A DNA stretch of 64,000 nucleotides, taken from the NCBI GenBank assembly GCA_017555585.1, contig JAFZGA010000005.1, forward strand, positions 102,656 to 166,655, written 5' to 3'. Shown piece after piece: positions 22,068 to 37,821 of this stretch (position 1 is the stretch's first letter; each line of letters starts with the position of its first letter). The stretch is from Bacteroidaceae bacterium (GTDB lineage: Bacteria > Bacteroidota > Bacteroidia > Bacteroidales > Bacteroidaceae). The translations under genes were made by a program, and so were the position numbers. Below the pieces are notes generated by a model. It saw nothing but the letters and a program-made list of their open reading frames with translations, ran no database searches and was not told the DNA's origin.

Positions 22068-23041
22068 CGCATTCTTTCATTGTCGAAGTTAAGGTACGGA
22101 TATTTTTCTTCAAATCCTTCGATTTTATTCAATAAATTGCACAGGAAATTCCTGTAACCGTCCGATGTGGCATCGAAAGGGCGGTGTCCTGTTGCGCGGA
22201 GTACCGCTTCGATCTCCTCATTGAGCTTTTGTGTATTCTCGTCGAAAAGGGCTTTTGAAAAACATTCCCATATATATTCCACAGCAACCGGTGACGGGTG
22301 CACCATGTCGTCGGTGTAGAAGCGGTAGTCTCGCAGTTCGTCAAGAACAATCTCGTATGCAGGGAAATAGCTTGTGTTGTCGGGGTAGAGCGACATTATC
22401 CTGTCTATGGCAAGCAATAATGTGGCTTTGCTCTTCTGGTTGTCGTGTGCCCCGTCGCGCAGGTGGCGTATTGGACTTACGGTGAATATGAATCTGATGT
22501 CAGGGTTGATGTTGCGGAACTTGATGATGACCTCCGCTGTGGCATCGACAATCTCGTCTATACTGAGCAGACGGCGCGTGAACATGCCCGAGGGCAGTTT
22601 GTGGCAATTCCCTACAACAATGTTGTCACTGTTGCGGGTGTATGCGTATGCCGTTCCGAATGTTATTATTACGGTGTCGTATATTCCTGCCTTTGAATGG
22701 CATCTGCCAAGGCTTCCGTTGATGGCTTCCAGAAGTTCCTCCCTGCTATTGCGTGACCAGTCGCTGTGATGCAGTATGCTGTGCCATTTTCCGCAATGTT
22801 CGAACAACTCCGGCGACTCCTGTGTGAACGGCTGTCCGTCGATAACCCTTGTGAACATAGTGGATATGGACAACGGGTTATACAGCACACCGAAAGGGTT
22901 TATGTCGATATTGAATTTCCTTTCGGCAAGCATTGCACCAATGTTGCTTGCAAAGCATGAGCCTGTAAGCAGCAGATTGTTCTTGTGGGTTATGCAATAT
23001 TTGCTTTTGGGAATTTCTATTGTTGTTCTGAAGCGTGTCAT
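22043..23041 (-). CDS. GSCFA-domain protein
   Basis: The literal motif LLLTGSCFASNIG is present. The start is trimmed to Met26 (MTRFRTTIEIP), but the alternative ATG at 23116 is not excluded. The gene overlaps the murF-alr start by 25 nt. Confidence 0.75.
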   Translation of the reverse strand: MTRFRTTIEIPKSKYCITHKNNLLLTGSCFASNIGAMLAERKFNIDINPFGVLYNPLSISTMFTRVIDGQPFTQESPELFEHCGKWHSILHHSDWSRNSREELLEAINGSLGRCHSKAGIYDTVIITFGTAYAYTRNSDNIVVGNCHKLPSGMFTRRLLSIDEIVDATAEVIIKFRNINPDIRFIFTVSPIRHLRDGAHDNQKSKATLLLAIDRIMSLYPDNTSYFPAYEIVLDELRDYRFYTDDMVHPSPVAVEYIWECFSKALFDENTQKLNEEIEAVLRATGHRPFDATSDGYRNFLCNLLNKIEGFEEKYPYLNFDNERMRCNTLLNK

Positions 23042-23147
23042 TGTGGTATGGTGTATTTTATCGCAAAGATACTTGCAAACGAGCGAAATAATATCAAGCT
23101 TGCTTGAATATTTCACAGTGAGTGCCGCCTATTTTCGCGATTTATCG

Positions 23148-23155
23148 CAAAAATA
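23148..23155 (-). promoter_or_regulatory. -7 box (TATTTTTG) for the GSCFA/murF-alr operon
   Basis: The minus strand reads TATTTTTG, matching TAnnTTTG. Confidence 0.35.
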
Positions 23156-23229
23156 GTCAACTTCATTAATAAATGTAGTATCTTTGTGCATAATTTGTGC
23201 AGAACGTGCTTGTTTGTAGCTTAAAATAT

Positions 23230-23237
23230 TATATTTG
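23230..23237 (+). promoter_or_regulatory. -7 box (TATATTTG) for dxs
   Basis: The plus strand reads TATATTTG, about 90 nt upstream of the dxs ATG. A second candidate, TATCTTTG, lies at 23179..23186. Confidence 0.4.
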
Positions 23238-23325
23238 CATGAATGCAACCGATAGGGTATCCTGTGAAACCCCTCTTCATTGCAGTATTTGAGTTATGGA
23301 CATTCATGTGTAAAACATTCATGAA

Positions 23326-25221
23326 ATGGAAAATATGACAAAATATCCTTTGCTCGGAAAGATAAACTCTCCTGCCGATCTCAGGCAGTTGCCCGAAGAG
23401 TCTCTGCCGCAGGTGTGTAGCGAGCTAAGGAACTTTATAATTGATTCATTGGCAAACAACCCCGGCCATTTCGCTTCAAGCCTTGGCTCGGTGGAACTTA
23501 CAGTTGCCTTGCATTATGTATTCTCGACTCCTGACGACAAGCTTGTTTGGGACGTTGGTCATCAGGCATACGGCCATAAGATACTCACCGGCCGCAGGGA
23601 CCTTTTCCATACCAACCGCAAGTTCGGCGGCATCAAACCGTTTCCATCACCCGATGAGAGCGAATATGACTCTTTTGTTGCCGGTCATGCTTCTAACTCG
23701 ATATCAGCAGCATTGGGCTTGTCGGTTTCGGCGAAGTTGCAGGGACGCGATGAACATGTGGTGGCTGTCATCGGTGACGGCTCAATGAGCGGTGGCTTGG
23801 CATACGAAGGACTGAACAACCTGTCGAACACTCCTAACAATCTGCTTGTTATCCTTAACGACAACAATATGTCCATCGACAAGAGTGTGGGCGGTATGAG
23901 CCAGTTGCTAATATCAATGCACTCGTCAAGGATATACAACAAGGTGCGTTATGCCATAGCCAAAGGGTTGCGCAAGGTCGGTCTCTTGAACGAACAGCGT
24001 GCCAATGCCCTTATACGCTTCAACAACGGACTGAAGGCAATGCTTTTCCGTCAGCAGAACATATTCGAAGGAATGAGTGCCCGCTATTTCGGTCCTATAA
24101 ACGGACACGATGTCCATGAGCTTGTGCGTATGTTGCGCAGTATCAAGGATATGACAGGTCCGCGCATGCTGCATATCCACACCACTAAAGGTAAAGGCTG
24201 GGAACCTGCCGAAAAGAATGCTACAGTATGGCATCAGCCCGGTATCTTTGATATCGAGACCGGTGAACGCATCGTGTCGGAAGGCGGTACACCGCGTTTT
24301 CAGGATGTCTTTGGCGATACCCTTGTTGAACTTGCAAAGGCCGATGAAAGAATCATCGGTATCACACCGGCAATGCCTACAGGCTGTTCTATGAACAAAC
24401 TCATGAACGAGTTGCCCGACCGTTTCTTTGATGTCGGCATAGCCGAAGGTCATGCGGTCACATTCTCTGCCGGCCTTGCAAAGGGTGGTGCCTTGCCGTT
24501 CTGTAATATCTATTCGTCGTTCATGCAACGCGGTTATGATAATCTCATCCACGATGTTGCATTGCAACGCCTTGATTTCGTGCTCTGTCTTGACAGAGCC
24601 GGCCTTGTAGGTGAGGACGGTCCTACACATCATGGAGCATTCGACCTTGCCTATCTGCGCCCGATACCTAACCTGACAATATCATCGCCTTACGATGAGC
24701 GTGAATTGCGCAGGCTTATGTTCACGGCAGTGCAACCAGGCATGGGTACATTCGTCATACGTTATCCACGCGGTAAAGGCTCTCTTGTTGACTGGCGCTG
24801 TCCGCTTGAGGCTGTCGAGGTGGGTAAAGGTCGTCTGATGAGAGAAGGCAACGATGTGGCATTCCTTACATTGGGTCCTCTCGGAAAGGTCATGGAAAGC
24901 GTACTCGATGAGGCTGCAAAGCAGGGTGTCAGCGTAGCACATTACGATATGCGTTTCCTCAAACCTATAGATACAGCTATCCTTCACGAGGTGGGCGAGA
25001 AGTTCAAGTATGTCGTTACTTTGGAGGACGGTTGCGTAAGCGGCGGTCTGGGCAGTGCTGTTATCGAATATATGGCCGAAAACGGATACAACCCAGCAAT
25101 AAAGGTTATGGGTATTCCCGACAAGTTCATAGAACATGGAACACCAGAGGAACTGTATCGCGTATGTGGCATGGATAAGGAGAGCGTTTTGCATACAATA
25201 CTAAAATTCAAGGAACTATGA
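23326..25221 (+). CDS. dxs: 1-deoxy-D-xylulose-5-phosphate synthase
   Basis: 631 aa with [12 protein letters not shown] and the TPP-binding motif [12 protein letters not shown], followed by transketolase-like Pyr and C-terminal domains. Confidence 0.95.
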
Positions 25222-26555
25222 GAATCGTTATCGCCGGTGCAGGTGCTGTAGGAACACACTTGGCCAAGATGCTTTCGGTAGAAAACGAAAATGTTGTCCT
25301 GCTTGACGAGAGTGAGGAGAAACTCGGTAAGATGGAGTCTCTCTTCGATTTGCAGGCAATTGTGGGCGACCCTACAAAAATATCGGCGTTGAAGTCGGCC
25401 GGTGTCGACTCTGCGGAACTTTTCGTGGCTGTAACGCCCGACGAGAGCCGTAACATAACGGCATGTATCCTTGCTCACTATCTCGGTGCAAAGAAAACCA
25501 TTGCCCGTATCGATAACTATGAGTATTTGCAGCCCAAGCATAAGGCATATTTCGAGTCTTTGGGCGTGGATGCACTTATCTATCCCGAACAGCTCGCTGC
25601 CGAAGAGATTGCCACCAACATAAAATACTGTTGGATGCGTCAGATGCTCGAGTTCGGTGATGGAGCATTGGTGATGATAGGTGTCAAGATAAGGGAAAAT
25701 GCATCGATAAAGGATATTCCTCTTAAGGATTTCCCGAATGATATACCATATCATGTGGTTGCCATACAGCGTGGCGATGAAACGATTATACCACGTGGAA
25801 ATGATGCCATAATGGTCAACGACCTTGTCTGCTTCATGACAACGAGCGACAAGATACAGTACATGCGTTCCATCTGCGGAAAAGAGGAGTTTACCGAGGT
25901 GAACAGCCTCATAATCATGGGTGGCAGCCGCATTGCCGTACGTACCGCCAACCTCATTCCCGACAATGTGAACATAAAGATAATCGAGAGCGACCTCAAC
26001 CGTTGCCATAAGCTTCTTGAGCTTGTCGATGACAGGGTGATGATCATCAATGGTGATGCACGCGACCCCGAGCTACTGCGTAGCGAGGGCATTGACCGCA
26101 CCGATGCATTTGTAGCTCTTGGCGACAGCTCCGAAACGAATATCCTTGCCTGCATGGCGGCAAAACGTGGCGGAGTGTTCCGTACAATATCCGAAATAGA
26201 GAACATCGATTATATTTCAATGGCCGAAAGCATGGATATCGGCTCTGTAATCAACAAGAAGAAGATTGCTGCAAGTGCAATCTTCCAGATGATGCTCAAT
26301 ACCGATGTGCTTAGCGTCAAATGCCTTACATTCATTCAGGCTGTGGTTGCCGAATTCCCCGTGAACGAAGGTGACTACATAACCAAGAAACCGGTAAAGA
26401 ATCTCGGCTTGCCCGATGGTGCCAATATCGGTGGTCTCATACGTAACGGTGAGGGTATGCATGTTACCGGAAATACCATGATACAAGCCGGTGACCATGT
26501 GGTAATCTTCTGCCGCGAGCACATGCTCAAGAAATTGGAAAAATTCTTCAAGTGA
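25218..26555 (+). CDS. trkA: Trk system potassium uptake protein TrkA
   Basis: 445 aa with two RCK/NAD-binding halves ([12 protein letters not shown]; [12 protein letters not shown]). The start overlaps the dxs stop by 4 nt. Confidence 0.9.
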
Positions 26556-28009
26556 TGTTTCATCCTAAAATTATATTCCGAATAATAGGCCTGTTGCTTT
26601 ATGTCGAAGCAATATTCTTGCTTGCCTGTGTGCCAGTAGCTTTGTATTATAGCGAGCCGGTAATGCGTCCGTTGCTCATATCCATTGCTTCAATGGTTGG
26701 TGTCGGTTCACTGTTCACATATCTGTGCAACGGTACCGAACGTAACATATCGCGCAAGGACGGCTACATTGTTGTAACGCTATGTTGGATAATATTCTCG
26801 TTGTTCGGCTCATTGCCCTATATGCTCACCGGGTATATCCCATCTTTTACCGACGCGTTCTACGAGACAATGTCGGGCTTCTCGACAACCGGAGCAACCA
26901 TTCTGCAGGATATCGAAGCCATGCCCAAGTCATTGCTCTTTTGGCGTATGATGACACATTGGGTCGGCGGTTTGGGAATCATCTTCTTTACCGTAGCCAT
27001 ATTCCCGATATTCGGCCTTAGCGACATTCACCTTTTTGCCGCTGAGTCGGTAGGTCCCATGCGTGCAAAGCTACACCCGAGAATAGCTGTTACTGCCCGC
27101 TGGATTCTCACTATATATGTAGGACTTACACTCATAGCTACCGTGTCATACCATTTTGCAGGTATGGGGTGGTTCGACTCGGTGTGCCATGCCATGTCGA
27201 CCATTGCCACTGGAGGTTTCTCGACCAAACAGGATAGTATAGCCGCATTCGATTCTCCAAAGATAGAATATGTCACCACACTGTTTATGTTCCTCAGCGG
27301 TATAAACATGTCGTTGCTCTATCTGTTCATCTTTAAGTTCCGTTTCAAGGAACTGTTGCGCGATACCGAGGCTAAGACATATGTCTCTATTGTAGCCATA
27401 TACACTGTTGCAATAACAATAGGATTGTATTTTACAACTCCGGCTGATGCCGAACAGTCGTTCCGTACAGCACTGTTTCAGGTGGTATCGGTGCAGACAA
27501 CAACGGGATTTGCAACAGCCAACTATGTGACATGGTTGCCTATATTGTGGCTCTTGCTGTGTTCACTCATGTTCTTCGGAGCATGTTCAGGCTCAACATC
27601 GGGAGCCATGAAATGTGTGCGTATATCAACCCTGTTCAAGGTGATGATAAACGAGTTCAAGCGTATTGTACATCCTAATGCTGTCATTCCCGTGCGCATG
27701 GCAGGCAAGGTTGTACCTACATCGGTGCAGTCGGCAATACTTGCCTATACCGTAATATATATATTCATGCTGATTATAGGTCTTGTAGTGAATATGTGCT
27801 TCGGTATGGACTTCCTTGATTCATTCGGCCTTTCCGTTGCATCGGTAGGTAATGTAGGTCCTGCGCTCGGTCACTATGGCCCTATGGATTCTTTTGCAAC
27901 ACTGCCTTGCGTGGTAAAATGGTTCAGTGCATTCCAGATGCTTGTAGGTCGTCTTGAGTTCTTTGCTGTGCTTCTGTTATTGACACCGGTGTTCTGGAAG
28001 AAGAGATAA
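26552..28009 (+). CDS. trkH: Trk-type potassium transporter membrane subunit TrkH
   Basis: 485 aa, polytopic, with selectivity-filter-like repeats (SGFSTTGAT, TGGFST, TTTGFAT, GNVGP). It overlaps trkA by 4 nt. Confidence 0.9.
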   Translation: MMFHPKIIFRIIGLLLYVEAIFLLACVPVALYYSEPVMRPLLISIASMVGVGSLFTYLCNGTERNISRKDGYIVVTLCWIIFSLFGSLPYMLTGYIPSFTDAFYETMSGFSTTGATILQDIEAMPKSLLFWRMMTHWVGGLGIIFFTVAIFPIFGLSDIHLFAAESVGPMRAKLHPRIAVTARWILTIYVGLTLIATVSYHFAGMGWFDSVCHAMSTIATGGFSTKQDSIAAFDSPKIEYVTTLFMFLSGINMSLLYLFIFKFRFKELLRDTEAKTYVSIVAIYTVAITIGLYFTTPADAEQSFRTALFQVVSVQTTTGFATANYVTWLPILWLLLCSLMFFGACSGSTSGAMKCVRISTLFKVMINEFKRIVHPNAVIPVRMAGKVVPTSVQSAILAYTVIYIFMLIIGLVVNMCFGMDFLDSFGLSVASVGNVGPALGHYGPMDSFATLPCVVKWFSAFQMLVGRLEFFAVLLLLTPVFWKKR

Positions 28010-28063
28010 GGTGTCACAAATTCTTGAAAACAGAAAACAATCAGAATATAAGGAGTGATATTT

Positions 28064-28216
28064 ATGAGTGTGGAATTTTATTCACAGAAAAGAGAAAGAT
28101 CCTTCTCTATTCTTTTGGGTTTATTAGTTTTATATTTTTATAGTGGTTATCCATCAGCAAACGGTAATAGTGGTGACCGTTGTAACGGCCGCCCTGTTCG
28201 TTCTGTATGTCAATAA
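28064..28216 (+). CDS. 50-codon orphan ORF, possibly a remnant of a FISUMP-domain gene
   Basis: It was hand-translated because it falls below the ORF-track cutoff: MSVEFYSQKRERSFSILLGLLVLYFYSGYPSANGNSGDRCNGRPVRSVCQ*. It is preceded by AAGGAG 7 nt upstream. The tail resembles the ...YLYF.SG.......GFSVRC end of FISUMP domains. Confidence 0.25.
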   Translation: MSVEFYSQKRERSFSILLGLLVLYFYSGYPSANGNSGDRCNGRPVRSVCQ

Positions 28217-28226
28217 CAGAAATATT

Positions 28227-28272
28227 AATAGAATAAATGAGATGAAGTGCACTTCATCTCATTTATTCTATT
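28227..28272. terminator. 46-nt perfect palindrome (23-bp arms) at the 3' end of the DUF4435-like gene
   Basis: aatagaataaatgagatgaagtg | cacttcatctcatttattctatt. The right arm contains the last codons and the stop of 28263..29258. Confidence 0.6.
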
Positions 28273-29258
28273 GTTTCCAACAGTCTCTCAATATCGCTCT
28301 TTAATTTTCTATACGGAGTAGCACCTTTATAATCGGTATTCTTGTTCAGCATCATCGCTACATCGCATTGGCTGTGCCGGTATGATGCAAGCTCATTATT
28401 ATACTGTTGCCTATGATATGCGTAACGCTCTATCTCCTGCTCGCGTCTGTTACGTAACTGCCGGCATACTGGCTGCAGCACGCGCAACGTAACTCCATTC
28501 ATGATGTGATGTCCCTGTATGTATAAATATGTCTCGTCGGGGTGAATTCCAAGTTGCTTGAGTTCTTGTTTTAGATTTTCGCACTCCTTTATCAGTTCAG
28601 GGAACTGCTTCTCCAACAGCTCTATGTTGTGGCTTACCCGGTTGCCGAGTTGTTGTAGTGAATATGCAGGGTTGTCTGTGGTGAATGATGTCAGCCGTAC
28701 TATATCGCAGAATTTGAGTATGCTCATTGTCTTGGTGTCGTGCTTGCGGTATAGCAGAATGTTCCATGCAAATAACGGGTAGCATATCTTCGAGTATAAC
28801 TTGAAGAACTCTTTGATATCTATTACATTGCTGTCGTTCTGAGTGCATAGTACGCACACCTGTTTCAGACTGTCGGCATAGCAGCGGTAGTTCTCTATGG
28901 AGTATGCGTATGTATGCAGGATGAACTTGTTTTCCAGCATCTGTCGTGATGTTGCTGTAGCACCTTGCAACAGGTAGTCGTAGTCGCTGTCTACACATGC
29001 TATCATGTTACGGCCGTATGCCTTGCCGAGCATATTCATCATTGCCTGCTTCTTGCCTTTGGTGAGCTTGGTGCGTGCAGGAAGCATTATCTCGAAGTGT
29101 ATCCTGTTGCTCTCGTATTCGTTGAACACCGACCGCCAAAAAGATATGTCATCATAGCTCTCTACATATGCTATGATGCGTTGTGCAGCTCTCTTTGGGC
29201 GTAATGCATTGGCCGCCTCTATGAAATTTGAGTTGAGATATTCAGCAAGCCTTTTCAT
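28263..29258 (-). CDS. DUF4435 / TOPRIM-like protein (AriB-like candidate effector)
   Basis: 331 aa with the motif order IIAYVESYDDISFW (acidic Glu), IACVDSDYDYLL (DxD) and HTYAYSIENY, as I remember for DUF4435. The C-terminal half is helical. Confidence 0.6.
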   Translation of the reverse strand: MKRLAEYLNSNFIEAANALRPKRAAQRIIAYVESYDDISFWRSVFNEYESNRIHFEIMLPARTKLTKGKKQAMMNMLGKAYGRNMIACVDSDYDYLLQGATATSRQMLENKFILHTYAYSIENYRCYADSLKQVCVLCTQNDSNVIDIKEFFKLYSKICYPLFAWNILLYRKHDTKTMSILKFCDIVRLTSFTTDNPAYSLQQLGNRVSHNIELLEKQFPELIKECENLKQELKQLGIHPDETYLYIQGHHIMNGVTLRVLQPVCRQLRNRREQEIERYAYHRQQYNNELASYRHSQCDVAMMLNKNTDYKGATPYRKLKSDIERLLETIE

Positions 29259-29346
29259 ATCTCATTTGTTGGTGTGCTTGTAAGTATAAAATGCCAAAGC
29301 CGGTCTTTGGGGCTACGTTGAATCTGATTCGTTCTGCAGATTTGTA

Positions 29347-30171
29347 TTATTTCGTGATATCCTCCATTTCGGTCACAGCGTCCAGCCATCCGTCCATTAT
29401 TATTGCCGGTGAGTGGGTACACAGGATAATCTGTGTGTTGGGGTTAAGTGTTCGAACAAGGGTTATGAGCCGTTGCTGCCACTCTATATGCAGTGATATT
29501 TCGGGCTCGTCCATGAGCATCACGCCGGGGCGGTTCTCCTGAACAAGTGCAGTGAGCAGTATCACAAGCATCTGTTTCTCTCCCGATGAGAGTACATAAG
29601 GTGATATTGTCTCTCCGTATTGGTGGAAGAATATCTCGTTGCTGTCGCGTGCTATTGTCTTTGCCGTAGGAGCAAACAGTTCGTCGACGAGGTCCTGGAA
29701 CTGTTTCTTGGGCTTTGTCAGCTCTGTGGCAAGCCTCTGGTCGTCGGGGTTTCCCGATGTGAGCAGGGATATGATGCGGTTGCCGATGTTCACCTGATAG
29801 TTGAGATATCGGCGTTGCAGGTTATAGAGCTGCCAGTCGAGCTCTGTGCGTATGTCGGCACCGGGAATCTTGTCGAGCATGTCGCTGTTAAGGATAGGGC
29901 GGTCTATGCTGCTTATCACATCAAAATGTATGCCTGTGGCATCTTCGGGATAGAATCTTACATGTACTCCGTCCTCGGGGTTTGTGGTGATAAGTCCTTT
30001 GCGCATGACCTTGAGGTGGCGTGCCGAACGGTTTATGATGGTGCTTTTGCCTACACCGTTGCTGCCGCTCAGTATGTTCACGTCGGGGCGCAGTTCCCAA
30101 TAGATATGCTTGCGGTTACTCCACAAGGAATCAATCTCAATGCTTTTTATGTATTGTGCCATCTTCTCCAT
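29347..30171 (-). CDS. compact soluble ABC/SMC-type ATPase (AAA_15/21-like; AriA-like candidate)
   Basis: It has Walker A LSGSNGVGKST, signature-like LSSGEKQ, Walker B VMLMDEPEISLH and H-loop CTHSP, with no TM segments. The start is ambiguous (ATG at 30219, 30171 or 30162). MEKMAQYIKSIEI fits the usual N-terminus of this family. Confidence 0.75.
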   Translation of the reverse strand: MEKMAQYIKSIEIDSLWSNRKHIYWELRPDVNILSGSNGVGKSTIINRSARHLKVMRKGLITTNPEDGVHVRFYPEDATGIHFDVISSIDRPILNSDMLDKIPGADIRTELDWQLYNLQRRYLNYQVNIGNRIISLLTSGNPDDQRLATELTKPKKQFQDLVDELFAPTAKTIARDSNEIFFHQYGETISPYVLSSGEKQMLVILLTALVQENRPGVMLMDEPEISLHIEWQQRLITLVRTLNPNTQIILCTHSPAIIMDGWLDAVTEMEDITK

Positions 30172-30332
30172 AAGCGGTGCGTTTGTTGCAAATGTAATAC
30201 AATGTTTGTCTAATATCAAGTATGTTACAACCTATTTGATTTAAAAATAGTGAAAATTCTTGATTTGCTGTAATTTGTTTTTATCTTCGCATAGGAATAA
30301 GTTCCATTTGCATTTAATTTAACAACATCGTT

Positions 30333-31976
30333 ATGGTACACATTTATTGCTTGAACAATGGCGTTACAAAAGATTTTCCGATAGGAACATCGTTGCGCGA
30401 AATTTACGACGGTCTCGGACTTGACATGCCATACGGCCCCATTGCGGCAAGGGTGAACAATCGTACACACGGATTGGCCCTGAGGATATACCGCCACAAG
30501 GATGTGGAGTTCATCGACATTACCACCGATGACGGTATGCGCATGTATGTGCGTTCATTGACCTTTATCTTCATGAAAGCCATGAACGAACTTTTCCCGG
30601 GCGAGATCGTACGCTTCGAGAATGCCATTTCCAAAGGCTATTACTGCAGGATGGATTGTGCCATAAGCGAAGAACAGGTGGCAATCGTCCGTGAAAAGAT
30701 GCAGCTCATAATAAACAGCGATATACCGTTCAAGCGCATAGAGTGCCACACCGATGAGGCTATTGAACTGTTCCGCAAGGTGGGGCGTATGGACAAGGTG
30801 AAACTTCTTGAGACGTACGACAGGCTGTATACAAGCTATTACGAGCTTGACGGCTATATCGACAGCTATTATCAGGGGCTTGTACCAAGTACCGGTTATA
30901 TAAGCCTGTTCGAAATAGAGAAGTTTGCCGACGGTGTTCTTCTGCGTGTCCCCAACAAGGAGTGTCCTACAGAACTTGAGGATAAGGTTCCGCAGGATAA
31001 ATTGCAGGATCTGTTCGAGGAGCGTCTCGCATGGCATCAGAAGATGGGTGTTGAAACCATCGGTGAATTCAACAAAGGTGTCCGTTCCGGATATGGTGTT
31101 GATCTCGTGAATGTGTCAGAGGTACTTCAGGAACGTCTCCTCTCGAAGATTGCCGATGATATCCAGGCACGTGGCTCACGGGTGGTGCTTATTGCCGGTC
31201 CTTCATCATCGGGAAAGACTACCTTCAGCAAACGTCTTAGTGTGCAGCTGCTTGCATGCGGCTTGCGTCCCTATGCCATATCTCTTGACGATTTCTTTGT
31301 GAACCGCACACATACACCGCGCAAACCCGACGGTGACTACGATTTCGAGTCGTTGTATTCGATAGATCTGCCATATTTCAATGACTCTCTGACAAAGATC
31401 CTTGCCGGCGAGGAGGTTGAATTGCCGTACTACAATTTCATAAGCGGTGAACGCGAATATAGAGGAAACAAACTGAAACTTACTCCGCAGATGGTACTTG
31501 TGATAGAGGGTACACATGCCCTGAATCCTCAGCTCACCTCTCAGGTTCCCGACAGCGCGAAGTTCCGTGTGTACGTTTCGGCCCTTACATCGATAAAGCT
31601 CGATTACCACAACTATATATCAACGTCGGATAACCGTCTGTTGCGCCGTATGCTACGCGATGCAAAATATCGTGGTTACTCGGCTGTGGAGACAATCCAA
31701 CGATGGCCCGATGTGCGCAAAGGCGAGGAGGAGTGGATATTCCCTTATCAGGAGAATGCCGATGTCATGTTCAATTCATCACATTTCTATGAACTTGCGG
31801 TGCTCAGGACACATGCCGAACCAATATTGCGTGCTGTTCCGCAGAATATAAAAGAGTATTCCGAGGCAAGAAGACTTTTGCATTTATTGGAATATGTAGT
31901 ACCTTTGCAGGACAATGAACTGCCTCCTACATCAGTGGTACGCGAATTCCTCGGAGGAAGTAGCTTCAAGTATTGA
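30333..31976 (+). CDS. uridine kinase/PRK-family nucleoside kinase fused to an N-terminal TGS/ThrRS-N-like region
   Basis: 547 aa with the P-loop IAGPSSSGKTTF in the C-terminal half, plus ISLDDFF, IEGTHALNP and RMLRDAKYRG. Confidence 0.7.
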   Translation: MVHIYCLNNGVTKDFPIGTSLREIYDGLGLDMPYGPIAARVNNRTHGLALRIYRHKDVEFIDITTDDGMRMYVRSLTFIFMKAMNELFPGEIVRFENAISKGYYCRMDCAISEEQVAIVREKMQLIINSDIPFKRIECHTDEAIELFRKVGRMDKVKLLETYDRLYTSYYELDGYIDSYYQGLVPSTGYISLFEIEKFADGVLLRVPNKECPTELEDKVPQDKLQDLFEERLAWHQKMGVETIGEFNKGVRSGYGVDLVNVSEVLQERLLSKIADDIQARGSRVVLIAGPSSSGKTTFSKRLSVQLLACGLRPYAISLDDFFVNRTHTPRKPDGDYDFESLYSIDLPYFNDSLTKILAGEEVELPYYNFISGEREYRGNKLKLTPQMVLVIEGTHALNPQLTSQVPDSAKFRVYVSALTSIKLDYHNYISTSDNRLLRRMLRDAKYRGYSAVETIQRWPDVRKGEEEWIFPYQENADVMFNSSHFYELAVLRTHAEPILRAVPQNIKEYSEARRLLHLLEYVVPLQDNELPPTSVVREFLGGSSFKY

Positions 31977-31988
31977 TATATATCCTGA

Positions 31989-33419
31989 ATGGCAAACAAC
32001 ACCTTTTCACAAACACAGAAACATGAACAGACCTTGACGCAGACGCTGTCGCCGCAGCAACTGCTTACTGTTCAGCTCCTCGAACTCACTACCATGGAGA
32101 TTGAGGATAGGGTGCGTAGTGAGGTTATGGACAATCCGGCCTTAGAGGTGGTTGATGGTGATGATATATCAGGCGAAAGCAATACACCTGATGATGTCAT
32201 GTCCGAAATCTCGAACGATGGTGATGATGATTACAGCGGTAACGGCGAAATTCCTGTGTTCAGCGGCTATGGTCATGGTACGGATTATGCCATAGGCGAT
32301 TCGATGTCGTTCGGTGATACGTTGCTTGAGCAGCTTGGCGAATTGCGTCTCACTCCGCAAGAAAAGAGTATAGGGGAATATATCATAGGATCGCTTGATG
32401 AGGACGGTTTCTTGCGCAAGGATATTTCGGAGATTGAGGACGAACTGCTGATATACGGCAATGTGATGACCGACATGCAGCAGATTCTCGGAATTCTTGA
32501 ACTTATTCAGGGTTTCGAACCAGCCGGTATAGCGGCAAGGACTCTTCAGGAGTCTTTGATGATACAGCTTGAACGTATTGATAACGGCAAGGATATGACA
32601 TTGCAGAAACGTATTGTCGGTGAATTCTATGAAGATTTTGCGGCAAAGCGATGGGAACAATTGGCAGATAGGCTGGGTGTTGACAAGGAAGTGTGCCGCA
32701 CGGCTATTGCCGATATCGTGCGTCTGAATCCGCGTCCTGGTGCTTCGTTGAGTGAGAATGTGGGTTTCAGCCGCCAGCAGATAATTCCGGATTTCGTGCT
32801 TGATGTGGTGGATGACAATGTGTATGTGTCATTGAATAATTTCCATGTTCCCGAATTGAGGGTATGCGACGAATATGTGCAGATGCTTGATGATCAACTT
32901 GCCAGCGGAAATCAGGAGCAGAAAGCTGCCGCAACGTTCCTTAAACAGAAAATTGACTCGGCAAAAGGTTTCATAAGCGCAGTTCAGCAGCGCGAGAACA
33001 CCATGCTCGCCACAATGCGTGCCATTGTAGCGAAGCAGAAGGAGTACTTTATCAACGGTGGTGATGAGGCCTATCTCAAGCCGATGATTCTTGAGGATAT
33101 TGCAAAGATGACCGGCTTTGACATCTCTACAATTTCGCGTGTGAGCAACAGCAAGTATGTGCAGACTCCTTGGAATGTCTCTCCGTTGAAATATTTCTTC
33201 AGCGATGGTGTAGTGAAGGACGACGGAACGGAGCAGTCGGTATATGAGCTCTTTGCTGTAATAAAGGAACTTGTTGATGGTGAGGATAAAAACTGCCCGT
33301 TGACCGACCAGGTGCTGCAGGAGAAACTTGCAGAGCGTGGCTACAGCGTTGCGCGCCGTACAGTGGCCAAATATCGCGAACAGCTACATATCCCGGTTGC
33401 AAGGTTGAGGAAATCGTGA
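31989..33419 (+). CDS. rpoN: RNA polymerase sigma-54 factor
   Basis: 476 aa with a Q-rich N-terminus, an acidic region, an HTH and the RpoN box ARRTVAKYR. Confidence 0.95.
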   Translation: MANNTFSQTQKHEQTLTQTLSPQQLLTVQLLELTTMEIEDRVRSEVMDNPALEVVDGDDISGESNTPDDVMSEISNDGDDDYSGNGEIPVFSGYGHGTDYAIGDSMSFGDTLLEQLGELRLTPQEKSIGEYIIGSLDEDGFLRKDISEIEDELLIYGNVMTDMQQILGILELIQGFEPAGIAARTLQESLMIQLERIDNGKDMTLQKRIVGEFYEDFAAKRWEQLADRLGVDKEVCRTAIADIVRLNPRPGASLSENVGFSRQQIIPDFVLDVVDDNVYVSLNNFHVPELRVCDEYVQMLDDQLASGNQEQKAAATFLKQKIDSAKGFISAVQQRENTMLATMRAIVAKQKEYFINGGDEAYLKPMILEDIAKMTGFDISTISRVSNSKYVQTPWNVSPLKYFFSDGVVKDDGTEQSVYELFAVIKELVDGEDKNCPLTDQVLQEKLAERGYSVARRTVAKYREQLHIPVARLRKS

Positions 33420-33469
33420 AAAGCTGTTTTAAATAGTCCGTAATCTTTGTTCGTTTAAGAAAATAGCTA

Positions 33470-33477
33470 TAAATTTG
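33470..33477 (+). promoter_or_regulatory. -7 box (TAAATTTG) for fbp
   Basis: An exact TAnnTTTG match about 65 nt upstream of the fbp ATG. Confidence 0.4.
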
Positions 33478-33542
33478 CGATAATACCTTAAGAAGGTATA
33501 TCGTATCCCAAAATGACGTTACTGATATAAAATAATTGAGTC

Positions 33543-35534
33543 ATGTCAAAACAAAAAGTAACAATTGAAGAGGTAAAGGAAGACCTCAGATATCTGCGTT
33601 TGCTTGCACGTGATTTCCCTACAGTGTCAAGCGTGACAACCGAGATCATCAATCTTGAGGCGATACTCCATTTGCCAAAGCCGACAGAACATTTTCTTGC
33701 CGACATACACGGCGAACACGAAGCTTTCCAGCATATCTTGCGCAATGCTTCGGGTAATATCAAACGTAAGGTAAACGATTTGTTCGGTGATGCAATAAGC
33801 GAGGAAGCAAAGAAAGACCTCTGTACGCTCATTTACTATCCTGAGGAGAAATTGAAACTGGTGCGCCAGTCGGGTGTTGATCTGGGAAATTACTATTCGG
33901 AGTCATTGAACCGTCTGATAGTGGTGTGCCGTGACGTATCATCAAAATATACACGTTCAAAGGTGCGCAAGAGCCTGCCCGAAGAGTATGCATACATCAT
34001 AGAGGAGTTGATGCACGAGGCAAAGGATTTCCAGAACAAACAGGCATATTTCAATGTAATTATCGATACGATAATAGGTACAGGCCGTGCCGATCACTTC
34101 ATCACTGCATTGTGCTATCTTATACAGCGTCTTGTAATTGACCGCTTGCATATCCTTGGCGATATCTTCGACCGTGGTCCCGGTGCGCATCATATAATGG
34201 ATGCCCTTTGTGAATATCACCATCTTGACATTACTTGGGGTAACCACGATGTCTTGTGGATGGGTGCGGCTGCAGGAAACACATGCTGTATTGCAAGCGT
34301 GTTGCGCTTGTCGTTGCGCGATGCCAATATGAGAACCCTTGAGGATGGCTATGCAATCAATATGGTTCCGTTGGCAACATTTGCTATGGAGCAGTATGCC
34401 GATGACCCGTGCGAGATATATCAGCCACGCGTCGATGAGGAACGTACCAATTTTACCGAAAAGGATGTGCGTCTTATAGCACAGATGCATAAGGCAATAT
34501 CTGTCATAGAATTCAAACTGTCAGGTCAGATAGCTATGCAGCATCCCGAATGGAATATGATGGACCGTTGTCTGATGGAAGGCATAAACAAGGAAAAGGG
34601 TGTGATTGTCATCGAAGGCAAGGAATATGAGATGAAGGACAAGTTGTGGCCTACACTCGACCCGGCCAATCCATACGCCCTTACTCCTGAAGAGCAGGAT
34701 GTCATTGACCGTCTACGCCACTCGTTTATGCGCAGTGAGCGTCTGCAGACCCACGTCAATTGTCTGCTCATGCGTGGTGGTATGTATATGATATACAATT
34801 CGAACTTGATGTTCCATGCTGCTGTTCCCATAAATGAAGACGGTTCTATGCGCGAAGTTGTATTTGACGGTGTTCCTGTAAAGGGTAAGGAGCTTCTGAA
34901 AAAGGTGGAGCGTATGGCACGTACAGCGTTCGACAACGATGTCGACATAGAGGTACGCAACAAATATGCCGATTTCTTCTGGTATCTGTGGTGCGGTCCA
35001 GAGTCGCCGTTGTTCGGTAAGGCAAGAATGGCAACATTCGAGCGTTATCTGCTCGACGATAAGGAGGTTCAGAAAGAGCCTAAAGGCTGGTACTACATAC
35101 TGCGCGACAACGCAGAGGTGTGCGACAAGATATTGGATGAGTTTGGTGTAAAGGGCAATCATCGCCATATCATTAACGGTCACGTTCCCGTGCGTGTTGG
35201 CAAGGGCGAGACTCCGATAAAGGCCGACGGTCGCCTGATGGTCATCGACGGTGGTTTCTCAAAGATATACCACAACCGTACCGGCATCGCAGGATATACT
35301 CTCGTTTACCATAGCCGTGGCTTCGAACTTGTGCAATTGACTCCGTTTACATCAACTGAGGAGGCTATCATTAACGGAACAGATATTGACGGTACGATAA
35401 ATATCGTCGAGATGGTAGGAGAGCGCGAAAAGGTACGTGATACCGATATCGGTCGAGGAATTATGATAAAGATTGCCGACCTTGAGCGTCTGTTGTATGC
35501 ATACCGCAAAGGTGTGATAAAGGAGCGACCATAA
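33543..35534 (+). CDS. fbp: fructose-1,6-bisphosphatase, class 3
   Basis: 663 aa with metallophosphoesterase motifs ADIHGEHEAF, GDIFDRGP and WGNHD. The length is typical of class-3 FBPase. Confidence 0.9.
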   Translation: MSKQKVTIEEVKEDLRYLRLLARDFPTVSSVTTEIINLEAILHLPKPTEHFLADIHGEHEAFQHILRNASGNIKRKVNDLFGDAISEEAKKDLCTLIYYPEEKLKLVRQSGVDLGNYYSESLNRLIVVCRDVSSKYTRSKVRKSLPEEYAYIIEELMHEAKDFQNKQAYFNVIIDTIIGTGRADHFITALCYLIQRLVIDRLHILGDIFDRGPGAHHIMDALCEYHHLDITWGNHDVLWMGAAAGNTCCIASVLRLSLRDANMRTLEDGYAINMVPLATFAMEQYADDPCEIYQPRVDEERTNFTEKDVRLIAQMHKAISVIEFKLSGQIAMQHPEWNMMDRCLMEGINKEKGVIVIEGKEYEMKDKLWPTLDPANPYALTPEEQDVIDRLRHSFMRSERLQTHVNCLLMRGGMYMIYNSNLMFHAAVPINEDGSMREVVFDGVPVKGKELLKKVERMARTAFDNDVDIEVRNKYADFFWYLWCGPESPLFGKARMATFERYLLDDKEVQKEPKGWYYILRDNAEVCDKILDEFGVKGNHRHIINGHVPVRVGKGETPIKADGRLMVIDGGFSKIYHNRTGIAGYTLVYHSRGFELVQLTPFTSTEEAIINGTDIDGTINIVEMVGEREKVRDTDIGRGIMIKIADLERLLYAYRKGVIKERP

Positions 35535-35565
35535 TAATCTTGAACATAAAATTAAAACTGAATAT

Positions 35566-36072
35566 ATGAAAGCAATTGTAAGTGTTATAATGGGAAGTAC
35601 ATCGGACCTTCCCGTAATGAAGAAAGCAACAGATTTCCTTAACGAGATGCAGGTTCCTTTCGAGGTTAACGCACTCTCGGCACACCGTACACCCGAAGCT
35701 GTTGAGGCTTTCTCAAAGGGTGCCAAGGAGCGTGGAGTAAAGATCATCATTGCCGCTGCAGGTATGGCTGCGCATTTGCCTGGTGTCATAGCGGCAAGTA
35801 CAACACTGCCTGTAATAGGTGTGCCCATCAACAGCACTCTTGACGGTATGGATGCTCTGCTCGCTATCGTTCAGATGCCTCCGGGTATTCCTGTGGCTAC
35901 AGTTGGAGTCAATGCTTCGTTGAATGCTGCTATCCTGGCTGTTGAAATGCTTTCACTTGCCGATGAGGCTCTTGCTGCACGCTTGGCTGAATATAAAGAG
36001 AATCTTAAGAAGAAGATCGAAAAGGCCAACGAGGATTTGAAAGAATTGAAATATGAGTACAAGACAAATTGA
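35566..36072 (+). CDS. purE: 5-(carboxyamino)imidazole ribonucleotide mutase
   Basis: 168 aa with IMGSTSDLPVM, SAHRTP and AAGMAAHLPGV. Confidence 0.9.
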   Translation: MKAIVSVIMGSTSDLPVMKKATDFLNEMQVPFEVNALSAHRTPEAVEAFSKGAKERGVKIIIAAAGMAAHLPGVIAASTTLPVIGVPINSTLDGMDALLAIVQMPPGIPVATVGVNASLNAAILAVEMLSLADEALAARLAEYKENLKKKIEKANEDLKELKYEYKTN

Positions 36073-37783
36073 TGTTGATCTGTTCAATTACACTCGTCGT
36101 GCAACTGTAGAAGTCAATGTCGGCGGTGTGAAGATAGGAAACGGACACTCTGTCAAGGTGCAGTCGATGACCAATACCGGTACGATGGATACTGAGGGCA
36201 GTGTGGAACAGGTTATACGTATCGTGGACAAGGGAGGTGAGCTTGTGCGTCTGACAACACAGGGTAACCGCGAAGCCGTGAATCTTGGCAACATAAAGCA
36301 ACAGCTCGTTGCACGCGGCTACAGAGTGCCTCTTGTTGCCGATGTCCATTTCAATGCATCTGTTGCCGATACTGCAACCAAGTATGCCGACAAGGTGCGT
36401 GTAAATCCTGGAAACTATGTGGACACTGCACGTACATTCAAACATATTGATTACACTGACGCTGAATATGCCGACGAGTTGAAACGTCTGAGAGAGCGTT
36501 TTGTGGCATTCCTCAACCTTTGCAAAGCCGAAGGAAAGGCAGTGCGCGTAGGAGTCAATCATGGCTCTTTGAGCGACCGCATCATGAGCCGATACGGTGA
36601 TACTCCGTCGGGTGTGGTGGAATCGTGCATGGAGTTTCTTCGTATATGTCGCGATGAGGATTTCAAGGACGTTGTTGTTTCAATCAAGACCAGCAACACG
36701 TCAATGATGGTAACTACAGTGCGACGTCTTGTGCGTGTGATGGCGGAGGAGGGTATTTCCTATCCTCTTCATCTTGGTGTTACCGAAGCCGGTGATGCCG
36801 AGGATGGTCGCATAAAGAGTGCTGTAGGTATCGGTGCTTTGCTTGCCGACGGTGTAGGCGACACCCTGCGTGTCTCGCTCGCAGAGGCTCCTGAGAACGA
36901 GATTCCTGTTGCAAAGGAGCTTGTTGACTATATAACAGACCGTGCAGGGCATGCAGCTATAGAGGCTAAGGCTTACGAGGGTTTCGACTATGAAGAACCT
37001 CTCCGTCGTGCAACTGTTGCTGTAGGTATTGTCGGTGGCGAGAATGTACCGGTAGTTATTGGCGGTGTTACCGATGATACTGATGTCAAGGCCGATTTCC
37101 TTGCTTCTGATATTGACTTGCAAAGAGTCGATGCTGCCAATGACGGAGCTTTCGTAGGGATAACTCTTGGTGATTTGACTGTAGAGAATATCGAAAAGAT
37201 AAAGTCGTTGAAGGATGTTGTACTTGTTGCTTCATCGTCGCATGCCAATCCTGTAGGCGAGTTGAGAGCTGTTGTACATGCTCTTGTCAATAATGGTATT
37301 TCTGCTCCGGTAATCATGCGTCGTTCATACAATGAGGAGTCTGTTGAGACTCTGCGCCTTAAGGCGGCTGCAGATTTGGGAGTGTTGCTTATAGATGGTA
37401 TAGCCGATGGTTTGTGGTTGGAAAGCAACGTTGGTACAGCTACCGAAATAAATTCTATAGCATTCGGCATTTTGCAGGCGACACGTGCGCGTATAAGCAA
37501 GACTGAGTATATCGCATGTCCCGGTTGCGGACGTACAATGTACGACCTTCAGGGCACACTTGCACGTATCAAGGCTGCTACAGCACATCTTAAAGGTCTT
37601 AAGATTGGTGTTATGGGTTGTATTGTCAACGGCCCGGGTGAGATGGCTGATGCCGATTACGGATATGTAGGTGCAGCACGTGGCAAGGTTTCGCTCTACC
37701 GCAAAAAGGAATGCGTAGAGAAGAACATCCCCGAAGAGGAAGCTATCGAAAAGCTCCTACAATTGATAGAGAATGATAAATGA
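36053..37783 (+). CDS. ispG: 4-hydroxy-3-methylbut-2-enyl diphosphate synthase, long form with inserted domain
   Basis: 576 aa. The TIM-barrel part has PLVADVHF and VRVNPGN, followed by a ~250-aa insert. The C-terminal Fe-S ligands are IACPGCGRT and GCIVNGPGE. Confidence 0.9.
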   Translation: MSTRQIDVDLFNYTRRATVEVNVGGVKIGNGHSVKVQSMTNTGTMDTEGSVEQVIRIVDKGGELVRLTTQGNREAVNLGNIKQQLVARGYRVPLVADVHFNASVADTATKYADKVRVNPGNYVDTARTFKHIDYTDAEYADELKRLRERFVAFLNLCKAEGKAVRVGVNHGSLSDRIMSRYGDTPSGVVESCMEFLRICRDEDFKDVVVSIKTSNTSMMVTTVRRLVRVMAEEGISYPLHLGVTEAGDAEDGRIKSAVGIGALLADGVGDTLRVSLAEAPENEIPVAKELVDYITDRAGHAAIEAKAYEGFDYEEPLRRATVAVGIVGGENVPVVIGGVTDDTDVKADFLASDIDLQRVDAANDGAFVGITLGDLTVENIEKIKSLKDVVLVASSSHANPVGELRAVVHALVNNGISAPVIMRRSYNEESVETLRLKAAADLGVLLIDGIADGLWLESNVGTATEINSIAFGILQATRARISKTEYIACPGCGRTMYDLQGTLARIKAATAHLKGLKIGVMGCIVNGPGEMADADYGYVGAARGKVSLYRKKECVEKNIPEEEAIEKLLQLIENDK

Positions 37784-37788
37784 TAAAT

Positions 37789-37821
37789 ATATTGATGGTG
37801 ACCAAAAGTCACCATCAATAT
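37789..37821. terminator. bidirectional hairpin terminator (ispG / topB)
   Basis: atattgatggtgac-caaaa-gtcaccatcaatat forms a perfect 14-bp stem between convergent genes. Confidence 0.7.

Follow-up and report, generated by a model that had tools for sequence, protein, structure and literature searches.

Two adjacent genes on the minus strand of a 64,000-nucleotide stretch of DNA from a Bacteroidaceae bacterium (contig JAFZGA010000005.1; the whole stretch is called the window here) encode a short ABC ATPase and a DUF4435 protein, which in our judgement probably form an ATP-gated TOPRIM nuclease complex that belongs to the PARIS family and is fixed in its lineage. The AriA-like ATPase (29347..30171, minus strand, 274 amino acids; delimited by the open reading frame list, Pfam, PADLOC and the start shared by its orthologues) lies upstream of the AriB-like, TOPRIM-type nuclease (28263..29258, minus strand, 331 amino acids; delimited by Pfam DUF4435 and the PADLOC AriB models), and the pair sits between trkA-trkH and udk-like/rpoN, where an initial annotation had placed it. 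Within the broad PARIS family, our comparisons show a distinct "short-AriA" clade, chromosomal, vertically inherited and fixed in Bacteroidaceae. The pair is an old, slowly evolving chromosomal resident rather than a mobile defence cassette, and chance is excluded as the origin of the gene and domain observations because of the E-values reported below.

The initial annotation had read the two genes as an ABC/SMC-type ATPase followed by a DUF4435/TOPRIM-like protein, and this reading holds: the motifs that it quoted are all present, and the Pfam comparison that it proposed gave 67.8 bits to AAA_21 and 62.2 bits to AAA_15 for the ATPase, and 155.1 bits (E 3e-45) to DUF4435 (PF14491) for the nuclease, a match over profile positions 2-236 of 238 that lies above the gathering score of 27 bits and places the protein in the DUF4435 family at full length. 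The ATPase carries, in the order expected of the ABC/SMC type, Walker A (G36-T44, GSNGVGKST), the signature (L194-Q200, LSSGEKQ), Walker B with its catalytic glutamate (V217-E222, VMLMDE) and the H-loop (H253, CTHSP). The key residues of these motifs, among them K42 of Walker A (codon 30048..30046), E222 of Walker B (codon 29508..29506) and H253 of the H-loop (codon 29415..29413; all on the minus strand), are invariant or nearly so in 63 orthologues and likewise across Bacteroides. Of the two starts first considered for this gene, ATG 30171 stands and TTG 30219, which would extend the reading frame to 29347..30219, is rejected: the equivalent ATG is used in 63 of 63 orthologues, nucleotide conservation is 0.88 in the first 48 nucleotides of the coding sequence vs 0.43 in the 48 nucleotides upstream, and 31 of the 63 orthologues have an in-frame stop within 16 codons upstream of the ATG. 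The AlphaFold2 model of the ATPase (predicted local distance difference test score, pLDDT, 76; predicted template modelling score, pTM, 0.78) contains a single short helical insert of ~60 residues (~110-169), of which helix 110-137 is nearly invariant across the 63 species. A Foldseek comparison had also been suggested at the outset, and for the ATPase it was informative: the best PDB matches were PtuA and AriA, with E about 1e-8, and AriA had the highest TM-scores among the top matches (TMq up to 0.56).

The nuclease contains the motifs VES (E33, codon 29162..29160), DSD (D90, codon 28991..28989, and D92, codon 28985..28983) and IEN (E122, codon 28895..28893), together with the further acidic residues D37 and D94, all encoded on the minus strand. 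Among 61 orthologues, E33, D37, D90, D92 and D94 show no variation, conservation of E122 is at least 90%, and these residues are also kept across Bacteroides, Phocaeicola and a homologue that is 34% identical. The acidic residues typical of TOPRIM proteins are therefore present, with a correspondence to AriB drawn from motif order and not from a significant pairwise alignment: E26, D30, D88, E90 and E122 of AriB match E33, D37, D90, D92 and E122 here, in the same order and spacing. The predicted layout is beta-alpha-beta-alpha-beta, with the glutamate after strand 1 and DxD after strand 3, and, lying in a low-confidence part of the model, would fit the TOPRIM topology.

The PARIS-like architecture proposed in the initial annotation agrees with both the PADLOC models and the published detection rule. 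In PADLOC-DB v2, the AriA model PDLC04164 (253 positions) matches the ATPase end to end (3-251, E 2e-55), and the nuclease is matched by the AriB models PDLC02983 (E 2e-52) and PDLC04165 (289 positions; E 1e-37, end to end). A Bacteroides orthologue and a 45%-identical homologue match PDLC04164 and PDLC04165 in the same way, and the scores of ~0.7 bit per residue imply that these models were not built from the Bacteroidaceae clade alone. The operational rule (Rousset 2022 / DefenseFinder-type) calls PARIS where an AAA_15 protein of at least 32 bits or an AAA_21 protein of at least 27 bits is adjacent to a DUF4435 protein of at least 27 bits (PMC9122126), and the pair passes it. The pair thus belongs, by its domains, to PARIS in the broad sense, and since the AriA and AriB models match and the rule is passed, it is not uncatalogued; the short form appears in the PADLOC models as PARIS already. 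Homologue searches saturated at >8000 hits, thousands of them near full length at ~274-290 amino acids, and an exhaustive search of cluster representatives found 295 clusters at 50% identity (E <= 1e-30), mostly of 250-350 amino acids. The suggestion that this is an undescribed minimal form was accordingly abandoned. "PARIS" has been reported in B. fragilis NCTC 9343 by DefenseFinder-based work (PMC13139388), and that system may be the orthologous pair.

What does set the pair apart is the size and shape of its ATPase. PARIS of E. coli B185 and others (Rousset 2022; Burman 2024; Deep 2024; PDB 8ux9, 8v45-8v49) is the same two-gene module of ABC ATPase and DUF4435/TOPRIM protein, and the motif regions of the ATPase align to AriA (E 3e-16 to 8ux9), whereas the solved AriA has 464 amino acids and ours 274, as the initial annotation had anticipated in calling it far shorter. 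The validated PARIS ATPases are all longer (PARIS-1 ~470 and PARIS-2 ~440 amino acids, from HHpred coordinates), and none of the validated systems has one as short as 274. The PDB matches 8ux9 and 8v45 extend no further than the motif regions: alignment to AriA is confined to the Walker A region and to residues 192-264, from signature to H-loop. As a proxy for canonical AriA we used the Pseudoalteromonas protein whose partner AriB matches the solved AriB at 6e-70: hhalign aligned only the last 85 profile columns, at 40% identity, and this AriA meets PDLC04164 in two pieces, its N-terminus and residues 294-429, the latter at positions 105-238. AriA residues ~50-294, where a region of ~190 residues holds IS1, the ascending coiled coil and IS2, have no alignable counterpart in the window ATPase. 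In AriA, IS1 (residues 122-180) recognizes the trigger, IS2 (residues 242-289) together with F230, F234, F238 and Y304 mediates the trimer of dimers, and IS1, IS2 and the coiled coil build the D3 trimer-of-dimers scaffold (Burman 2024, PMC11464382). Because the window ATPase has no counterpart of these elements, and so does not show the structural hallmark of AriA, neither the D3 hexamer nor the mapped trigger-recognition region is to be expected. Moreover, the pore residues with which AriA recognizes its trigger are poorly conserved (Burman et al., PMC11464382), in contrast to the conserved helical insert found here.

The second line of evidence is the behaviour of the pair at its locus. A species-level genome scan anchored on the udk-like neighbour protein gave 72 loci, each from a different species, which are uncultured Bacteroidaceae or Bacteroidales metagenome-assembled genomes and one Lentimicrobiaceae fragment, largely from ruminant and other animal gut samples. 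By tblastn, 62 of the 68 informative loci have the pair immediately upstream of udk with gene order and orientation unchanged, and other genes are found there in the remaining six, which belong to a more distant group (L037, L040, L045, L046, L047 and L063); this is the outcome of the comparison of the trkH-udk junction among relatives that the initial annotation had advised. Four loci were uninformative since their contigs end too soon (L041, L052, L071 and L005), and L005 in particular is rejected as a true absence, since its contig breaks off within an additional gene that separates the ATPase from udk. No copy is degraded: the ATPase reading frames encode 274-276 amino acids in 63 of 63 and the complete nuclease frames 330-347 in 61 of 61, so that in the loci examined the pair is shown to be never split, never degraded and unlinked to mobile elements. 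Median nonsynonymous divergence (dN) from the window is lowest of six genes for the ATPase (0.071), compared with TrkA (0.120), Udk (0.139), TrkH (0.180) and RpoN (0.265), and the nuclease (0.175) evolves about as slowly as TrkH. Synonymous divergence (dS) is saturated even against the nearest species (dS > 0.9), for which reason dN/dS ratios are unreliable and dN and identity were used instead. The alignments show both proteins keeping every catalytic motif under strong purifying selection.

These data also speak to the origin of the pair. Measured by pairwise distance, both genes diverge in step with the housekeeping neighbours (Spearman 0.72-0.75; TrkH 0.70), and coarse clustering into three groups is identical for the pair and for these neighbours; since the divergence of the pair tracks that of its neighbours, vertical inheritance is indicated. 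A mobile PARIS cassette that had recently entered between trkH and udk as a divergent, minimal variant would agree with the domain architecture and with the fact that the spacers on either side of the pair accept insertions in some species. However, the same site, order and orientation recur in 62 of 68 informative species, among which synonymous sites show saturation, the divergence tracks that of housekeeping genes, and there is no compositional anomaly, the GC content of the pair being that of its flanks. The window holds no tRNA gene, no repeats suggestive of insertion and no integrase gene; as had been noted initially, neither an integrase nor any other island gene was found among the window neighbours. 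All of these neighbours have housekeeping domains. An Rfam scan of positions 20000-38000 (18 kb around the pair) gave no match. With the absence of close relatives from phage genomes, PHROGs and viral contigs, described next, these observations make recent acquisition of the pair as a mobile element highly improbable.

Validated PARIS is described as often virus- or satellite-borne (PMC11464382), whereas the window pair is chromosomal, syntenic and vertically inherited. The nuclease had no match in 50,697 phage genomes or in PHROGs and no confirmed relative in 2.9 million viral contigs (IMG/VR). The patchy, accessory behaviour of PARIS is consequently not seen here: the junction is fixed, descent is vertical, the neighbours are housekeeping genes and phage matches are lacking. 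A 283-amino acid ABC ATPase, 36% identical to the window ATPase, is encoded in a phage-like contig (L083, 4584-5435) with many small same-strand reading frames, a DHFR and an N6/N4 methyltransferase, with no DUF4435 gene adjacent to it. Close plasmid matches of the nuclease were confined to two PLSDB records, "plasmid 41" (L075, NZ_OY725943.1, B. finegoldii) and "plasmid 93" (L076, OY726067.1, P. massiliensis). Plasmid carriage in Bacteroides or Phocaeicola is rejected, as both records hold chromosomal housekeeping genes in the order found on chromosomal contigs; both look like pieces of chromosome that were wrongly labelled as plasmids.

Outside the trkH-udk junction, orthologous pairs were found in Bacteroides finegoldii, B. 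nordii, Phocaeicola massiliensis and a widespread Bacteroides-type species whose exact protein also carries the name Jilunia laotingensis. The B. finegoldii ATPase is 56% identical to that of the window, and the nuclease orthologues are 47-51% identical. A second conserved context, ThrE - EamA (divergent) - ATPase - DUF4435 - MscS, is shared by B. finegoldii, B. nordii and the Jilunia-named protein, and of this context Phocaeicola retains the divergent EamA gene at least. In pairs at 40-45% identity the two genes likewise adjoin or overlap, with housekeeping neighbours where the contigs are long enough. ATPase and TOPRIM protein are separate reading frames in the window and in every homologous locus examined. 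In Phocaeicola massiliensis, a gene for a 1504-amino acid Cas9 lies ~2 kb downstream of the pair (L076, 11129-15643); it was not seen at the Bacteroides loci, where MscS follows the pair.

Conservation of this kind bears directly on function. The initial annotation had called the pair a defence module and had itself named beforehand, as a ground for giving up that claim, conservation of the pair as core genes at this locus; such conservation was found in 62 of 68 informative species, and together with an ATPase that evolves more slowly than its neighbours, vertical descent and the lack of matches in phage collections, it leaves defence unproven. A housekeeping or domesticated machine for nucleic-acid processing or repair, labelled PARIS only through shared domains, is a possibility that we take seriously and consider rather unlikely; examples would be a TOPRIM RNase under an ABC ATPase in RNA maturation or turnover, or a RecF/RecR-like ABC-plus-TOPRIM DNA transaction. 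It would account for fixed synteny in two independent clade-specific contexts, the lowest dN among neighbours, the lack of pseudogenes among orthologues, the absence of mobile-element or defence neighbours and of phage-genome or viral-contig relatives, and a conserved helical insert where the trigger pores of validated AriA are poorly conserved (PMC11464382). It would also fit the position of the clade within DUF4435. Bacteroidales orthologues score 171 and 221 bits with Pfam DUF4435, and DUF4435-type models as a whole score Bacteroidales proteins at 155-235 bits, whereas the Pseudoalteromonas orthologue of AriB (L084, 3297-4229; 6e-70 to PDB 8ux9_A) is missed by the current Pfam DUF4435 model at E <= 0.01 and scores no more than 39 bits with the PADLOC DUF4435-type model. 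Because this canonical AriB orthologue scores so far below the Bacteroidales proteins, Pfam DUF4435 is centred on, and in that sense defined by, the Bacteroidales clade, with validated AriB as an outlier. Against a housekeeping role stand four observations. No conserved functional neighbour across clades indicates a pathway, the closest relatives of the ATPase in both sequence and structure are all defence ATPases, the pair is apparently missing at udk in six species, which would be odd if it were essential (it may sit elsewhere there), and our search of the literature on DUF4435 in Bacteroides found nothing, a housekeeping role included. A related reading, also unlikely and held more tentatively, is that the pair is no sensor of phage proteins and instead belongs to the ancient core of the genome, as an ABC-gated TOPRIM nuclease that may serve the cell by processing RNA or DNA or by watching over a conserved host component in the manner of a guard; the pair could also represent the ancestral chromosomal form of the insert-bearing, mobile PARIS.

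Validated PARIS acts as a toxin-antitoxin pair in which AriA sequesters AriB (PMC11464382; PMC13064643). A purely addictive module of this kind, in which loss of the ATPase antitoxin frees the nuclease toxin and the host gains nothing, would agree with that behaviour and with the tight linkage of the two genes, which were never found apart. Addiction alone, however, gives the toxin no protection from inactivation, yet the nuclease gene is intact in 61 of 61 cases, its catalytic residues are invariant across lineages with saturated dS, and it evolves as slowly as TrkH; chromosomal fixation at such depth implies selection for the nuclease function itself. We therefore consider pure addiction very unlikely.

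The reading that we favour, an ATP-gated nuclease complex of the PARIS family, is supported by the Pfam and PADLOC matches, by the Rousset 2022 rule and by the structural similarity of the ATPase to PtuA and AriA. In such a complex, the ATPase would form a head-to-tail ABC dimer around two ATP molecules, and not a trimer of dimers, and this dimer would restrain the TOPRIM nuclease until a signal, coupled to the binding or hydrolysis of ATP, released or activated it. The nuclease might then cut nucleic acid, most likely RNA such as tRNA by analogy with AriB. PARIS itself is characterized by anti-phage activity or abortive infection that a phage protein such as Ocr sets off, with cleavage of tRNA-Lys. 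In the window pair the sensing surface is conserved and not variable, and for that reason a rapidly evolving phage protein would be a less likely signal than a host state or partner that is itself conserved, read by guard-type sensing or as a physiological cue.

Several points weigh against this proposal. In the TOPRIM core, the AlphaFold2 model of the nuclease has low confidence (pLDDT 53-64), and Foldseek, informative for the ATPase, returned no significant PDB match for this weak nuclease model, AriB included. Neither phmmer nor a profile search nor hhalign linked the nuclease clade to the solved AriB; homology to it is therefore argued from the shared Pfam/PADLOC DUF4435 model and from motif order. 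The stoichiometry and the ATPase-nuclease contact are inferred, and the known contact is only partly recognizable: in PARIS, AriB R28 and R31 form salt bridges with AriA D401 and E404 (PMC11464382), and here R28 and R31 have no equivalents, Y35 and I38 standing two and five residues after the TOPRIM glutamate, while in the sequence alignment D401 corresponds to E230 (acidic and nearly invariant) and E404 to Q233, so that one acidic partner is kept. It may be, then, that the interface between the two proteins differs from that of AriA and AriB. Six species have no pair at udk, this junction being the only place looked at in them. Finally, it is unusual for defence systems to be so strongly conserved and syntenic, and these features would fit a non-defence role equally well.

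Other systems share parts of this architecture. PtuA of Septu and of retrons (PDB 8ee4, 9kjx, 9n69) has the same AAA_15/AAA_21 defence-type ABC ATPase fold, gave the top Foldseek E-values and accounts for many PADLOC matches over the C-terminal motifs of the window ATPase; however, PtuA has 400-550 amino acids, its partner is the HNH nuclease PtuB and not a DUF4435 protein, and only the region of signature, Walker B and H-loop aligns. System 149 of the Rousset 2022 supplement (E. coli P2 hotspot), listed as PARIS, consists of a DUF4435 protein and a 393-amino acid ATPase that PADLOC scores as full-length PtuA (PDLC00305, 504 bits); an ATPase of the Septu type thus stands beside a nuclease of the PARIS type, and the boundary of the family is far from sharp. 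The OLD-family nucleases and GajA of Gabija follow the same logic of ABC ATPase and TOPRIM (PMC11464382), but they fuse the two in one polypeptide and the window pair is two proteins, and so it does not qualify as OLD; the pair had no match to the Toprim-Old Pfam domain and has no dimerisation domain such as the OLD type possesses. AbiL of Lactococcus (AbiLi/AbiLii) also joins an ABC ATPase to a TOPRIM-like partner (PMC13064643). For AbiLi, the Bacteroides orthologue gave a weak PADLOC match of 51 bits, far below the AriA models; AbiL is plasmid-borne, and AbiLii is reported to have no sequence similarity to AriB.

The sequence around the genes suggests that they form an expressed-looking two-gene operon on the minus strand, composed of a -7 box, the ATPase gene, the DUF4435 gene and a hairpin terminator. 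Promoters of Bacteroides have the -7 consensus TAnnTTTG. The box TACATTTG (30189..30196, minus strand), 18 nucleotides upstream of the ATPase ATG, fits this consensus and is a putative promoter as read from the sequence; the surrounding ACATTGTATTACATTTG is common to the closest relatives. The two genes are separated by 88 nucleotides, the gap noted initially and confirmed by the reading-frame coordinates, and relatives have an apparent gap of 11-295 nucleotides (median 27). A terminator-like scan found in this spacer a small G+C-rich hairpin followed by a T-run (29294..29310, minus strand), which could be an attenuator or a chance feature; because spacer length varies across species, it is a lineage-specific element and not a conserved part of the system.

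The flanks had been called unusual in the initial annotation for a palindrome and an orphan 50-codon reading frame. Both exist, and both have ordinary explanations. The 46-nucleotide perfect palindrome (28227..28272) takes in the DUF4435 stop codon (28263-28265), has a folding energy of -28.5 kcal/mol (z = -7.4) and acts as a bidirectional intrinsic terminator that serves the convergent DUF4435 gene and an upstream gene remnant. Long hairpins occur at the same position in relatives (L003, L004, L006, L007 and L008), with stems unrelated in sequence in L003, L007 and L008 and sharing much of the window stem in L004 and L006, and where the nuclease gene directly adjoins trkH, as shown for L009-L012, no strong hairpin is present. 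That the palindrome marks a site of recombination or insertion was considered and rejected, given these hairpins at the same place, three of them with unrelated stems. The 50-codon frame (28064-28216, plus strand) is 87% identical over its last 30 residues (E 6e-19) to the C-terminus of a 230-amino acid Lcl_C-like lipoprotein, and the nearest relative still has the complete lipoprotein gene, placed between trkH and the DUF4435 gene (L004, 7247-7939). By this match the frame is rejected as a small gene of the system; it is a 3' pseudogene remnant, the window lineage having deleted most of the lipoprotein gene. A 14-nucleotide perfect inverted repeat, TTCTGTTATTGACA / TGTCAATAACAGAA (27972-27985 and 28208-28221), brackets the end of trkH and the remnant, and may be due to chance or related to the deletion.

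In some species the spacers to either side of the pair tolerate insertions, and the pair is untouched in every species with inserted flanking genes. The spacers between trkH and the AriB-like gene hold inserts of 0.7-1.5 kb in the closest relatives (L003, L004, L006, L007 and L016). Elsewhere, a 559-amino acid fusion of Ser/Thr kinase and FGE-sulfatase (L070, 6265-7944) and a 701-amino acid M6 (immune inhibitor A-like) peptidase (L057, 7536-9641; also in L005, cut off at the contig end) lie in spacers flanking the pair.

As a domain pair, then, the module is already catalogued and ordinary to annotate; what is new is an insert-less ATPase architecture with no validated example, together with core-gene behaviour that is atypical of PARIS. 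The mismatch between a defence label and the evolution of a core gene is a concrete, testable point. If our reading is true, "PARIS" calls in Bacteroidaceae would largely reflect one fixed core gene pair and not accessory immunity, and censuses of defence systems in this family, which is abundant in gut microbiomes, would be inflated or distorted. The pair would also be a natural minimal form of an ABC-ATPase-gated TOPRIM nuclease, and thus a simple system in which to study the share of the ATPase head in nuclease control. More broadly, its core-gene behaviour raises the testable question of whether conserved, vertically inherited homologues of defence systems provide immunity, guard processes of the host or act as housekeeping enzymes.

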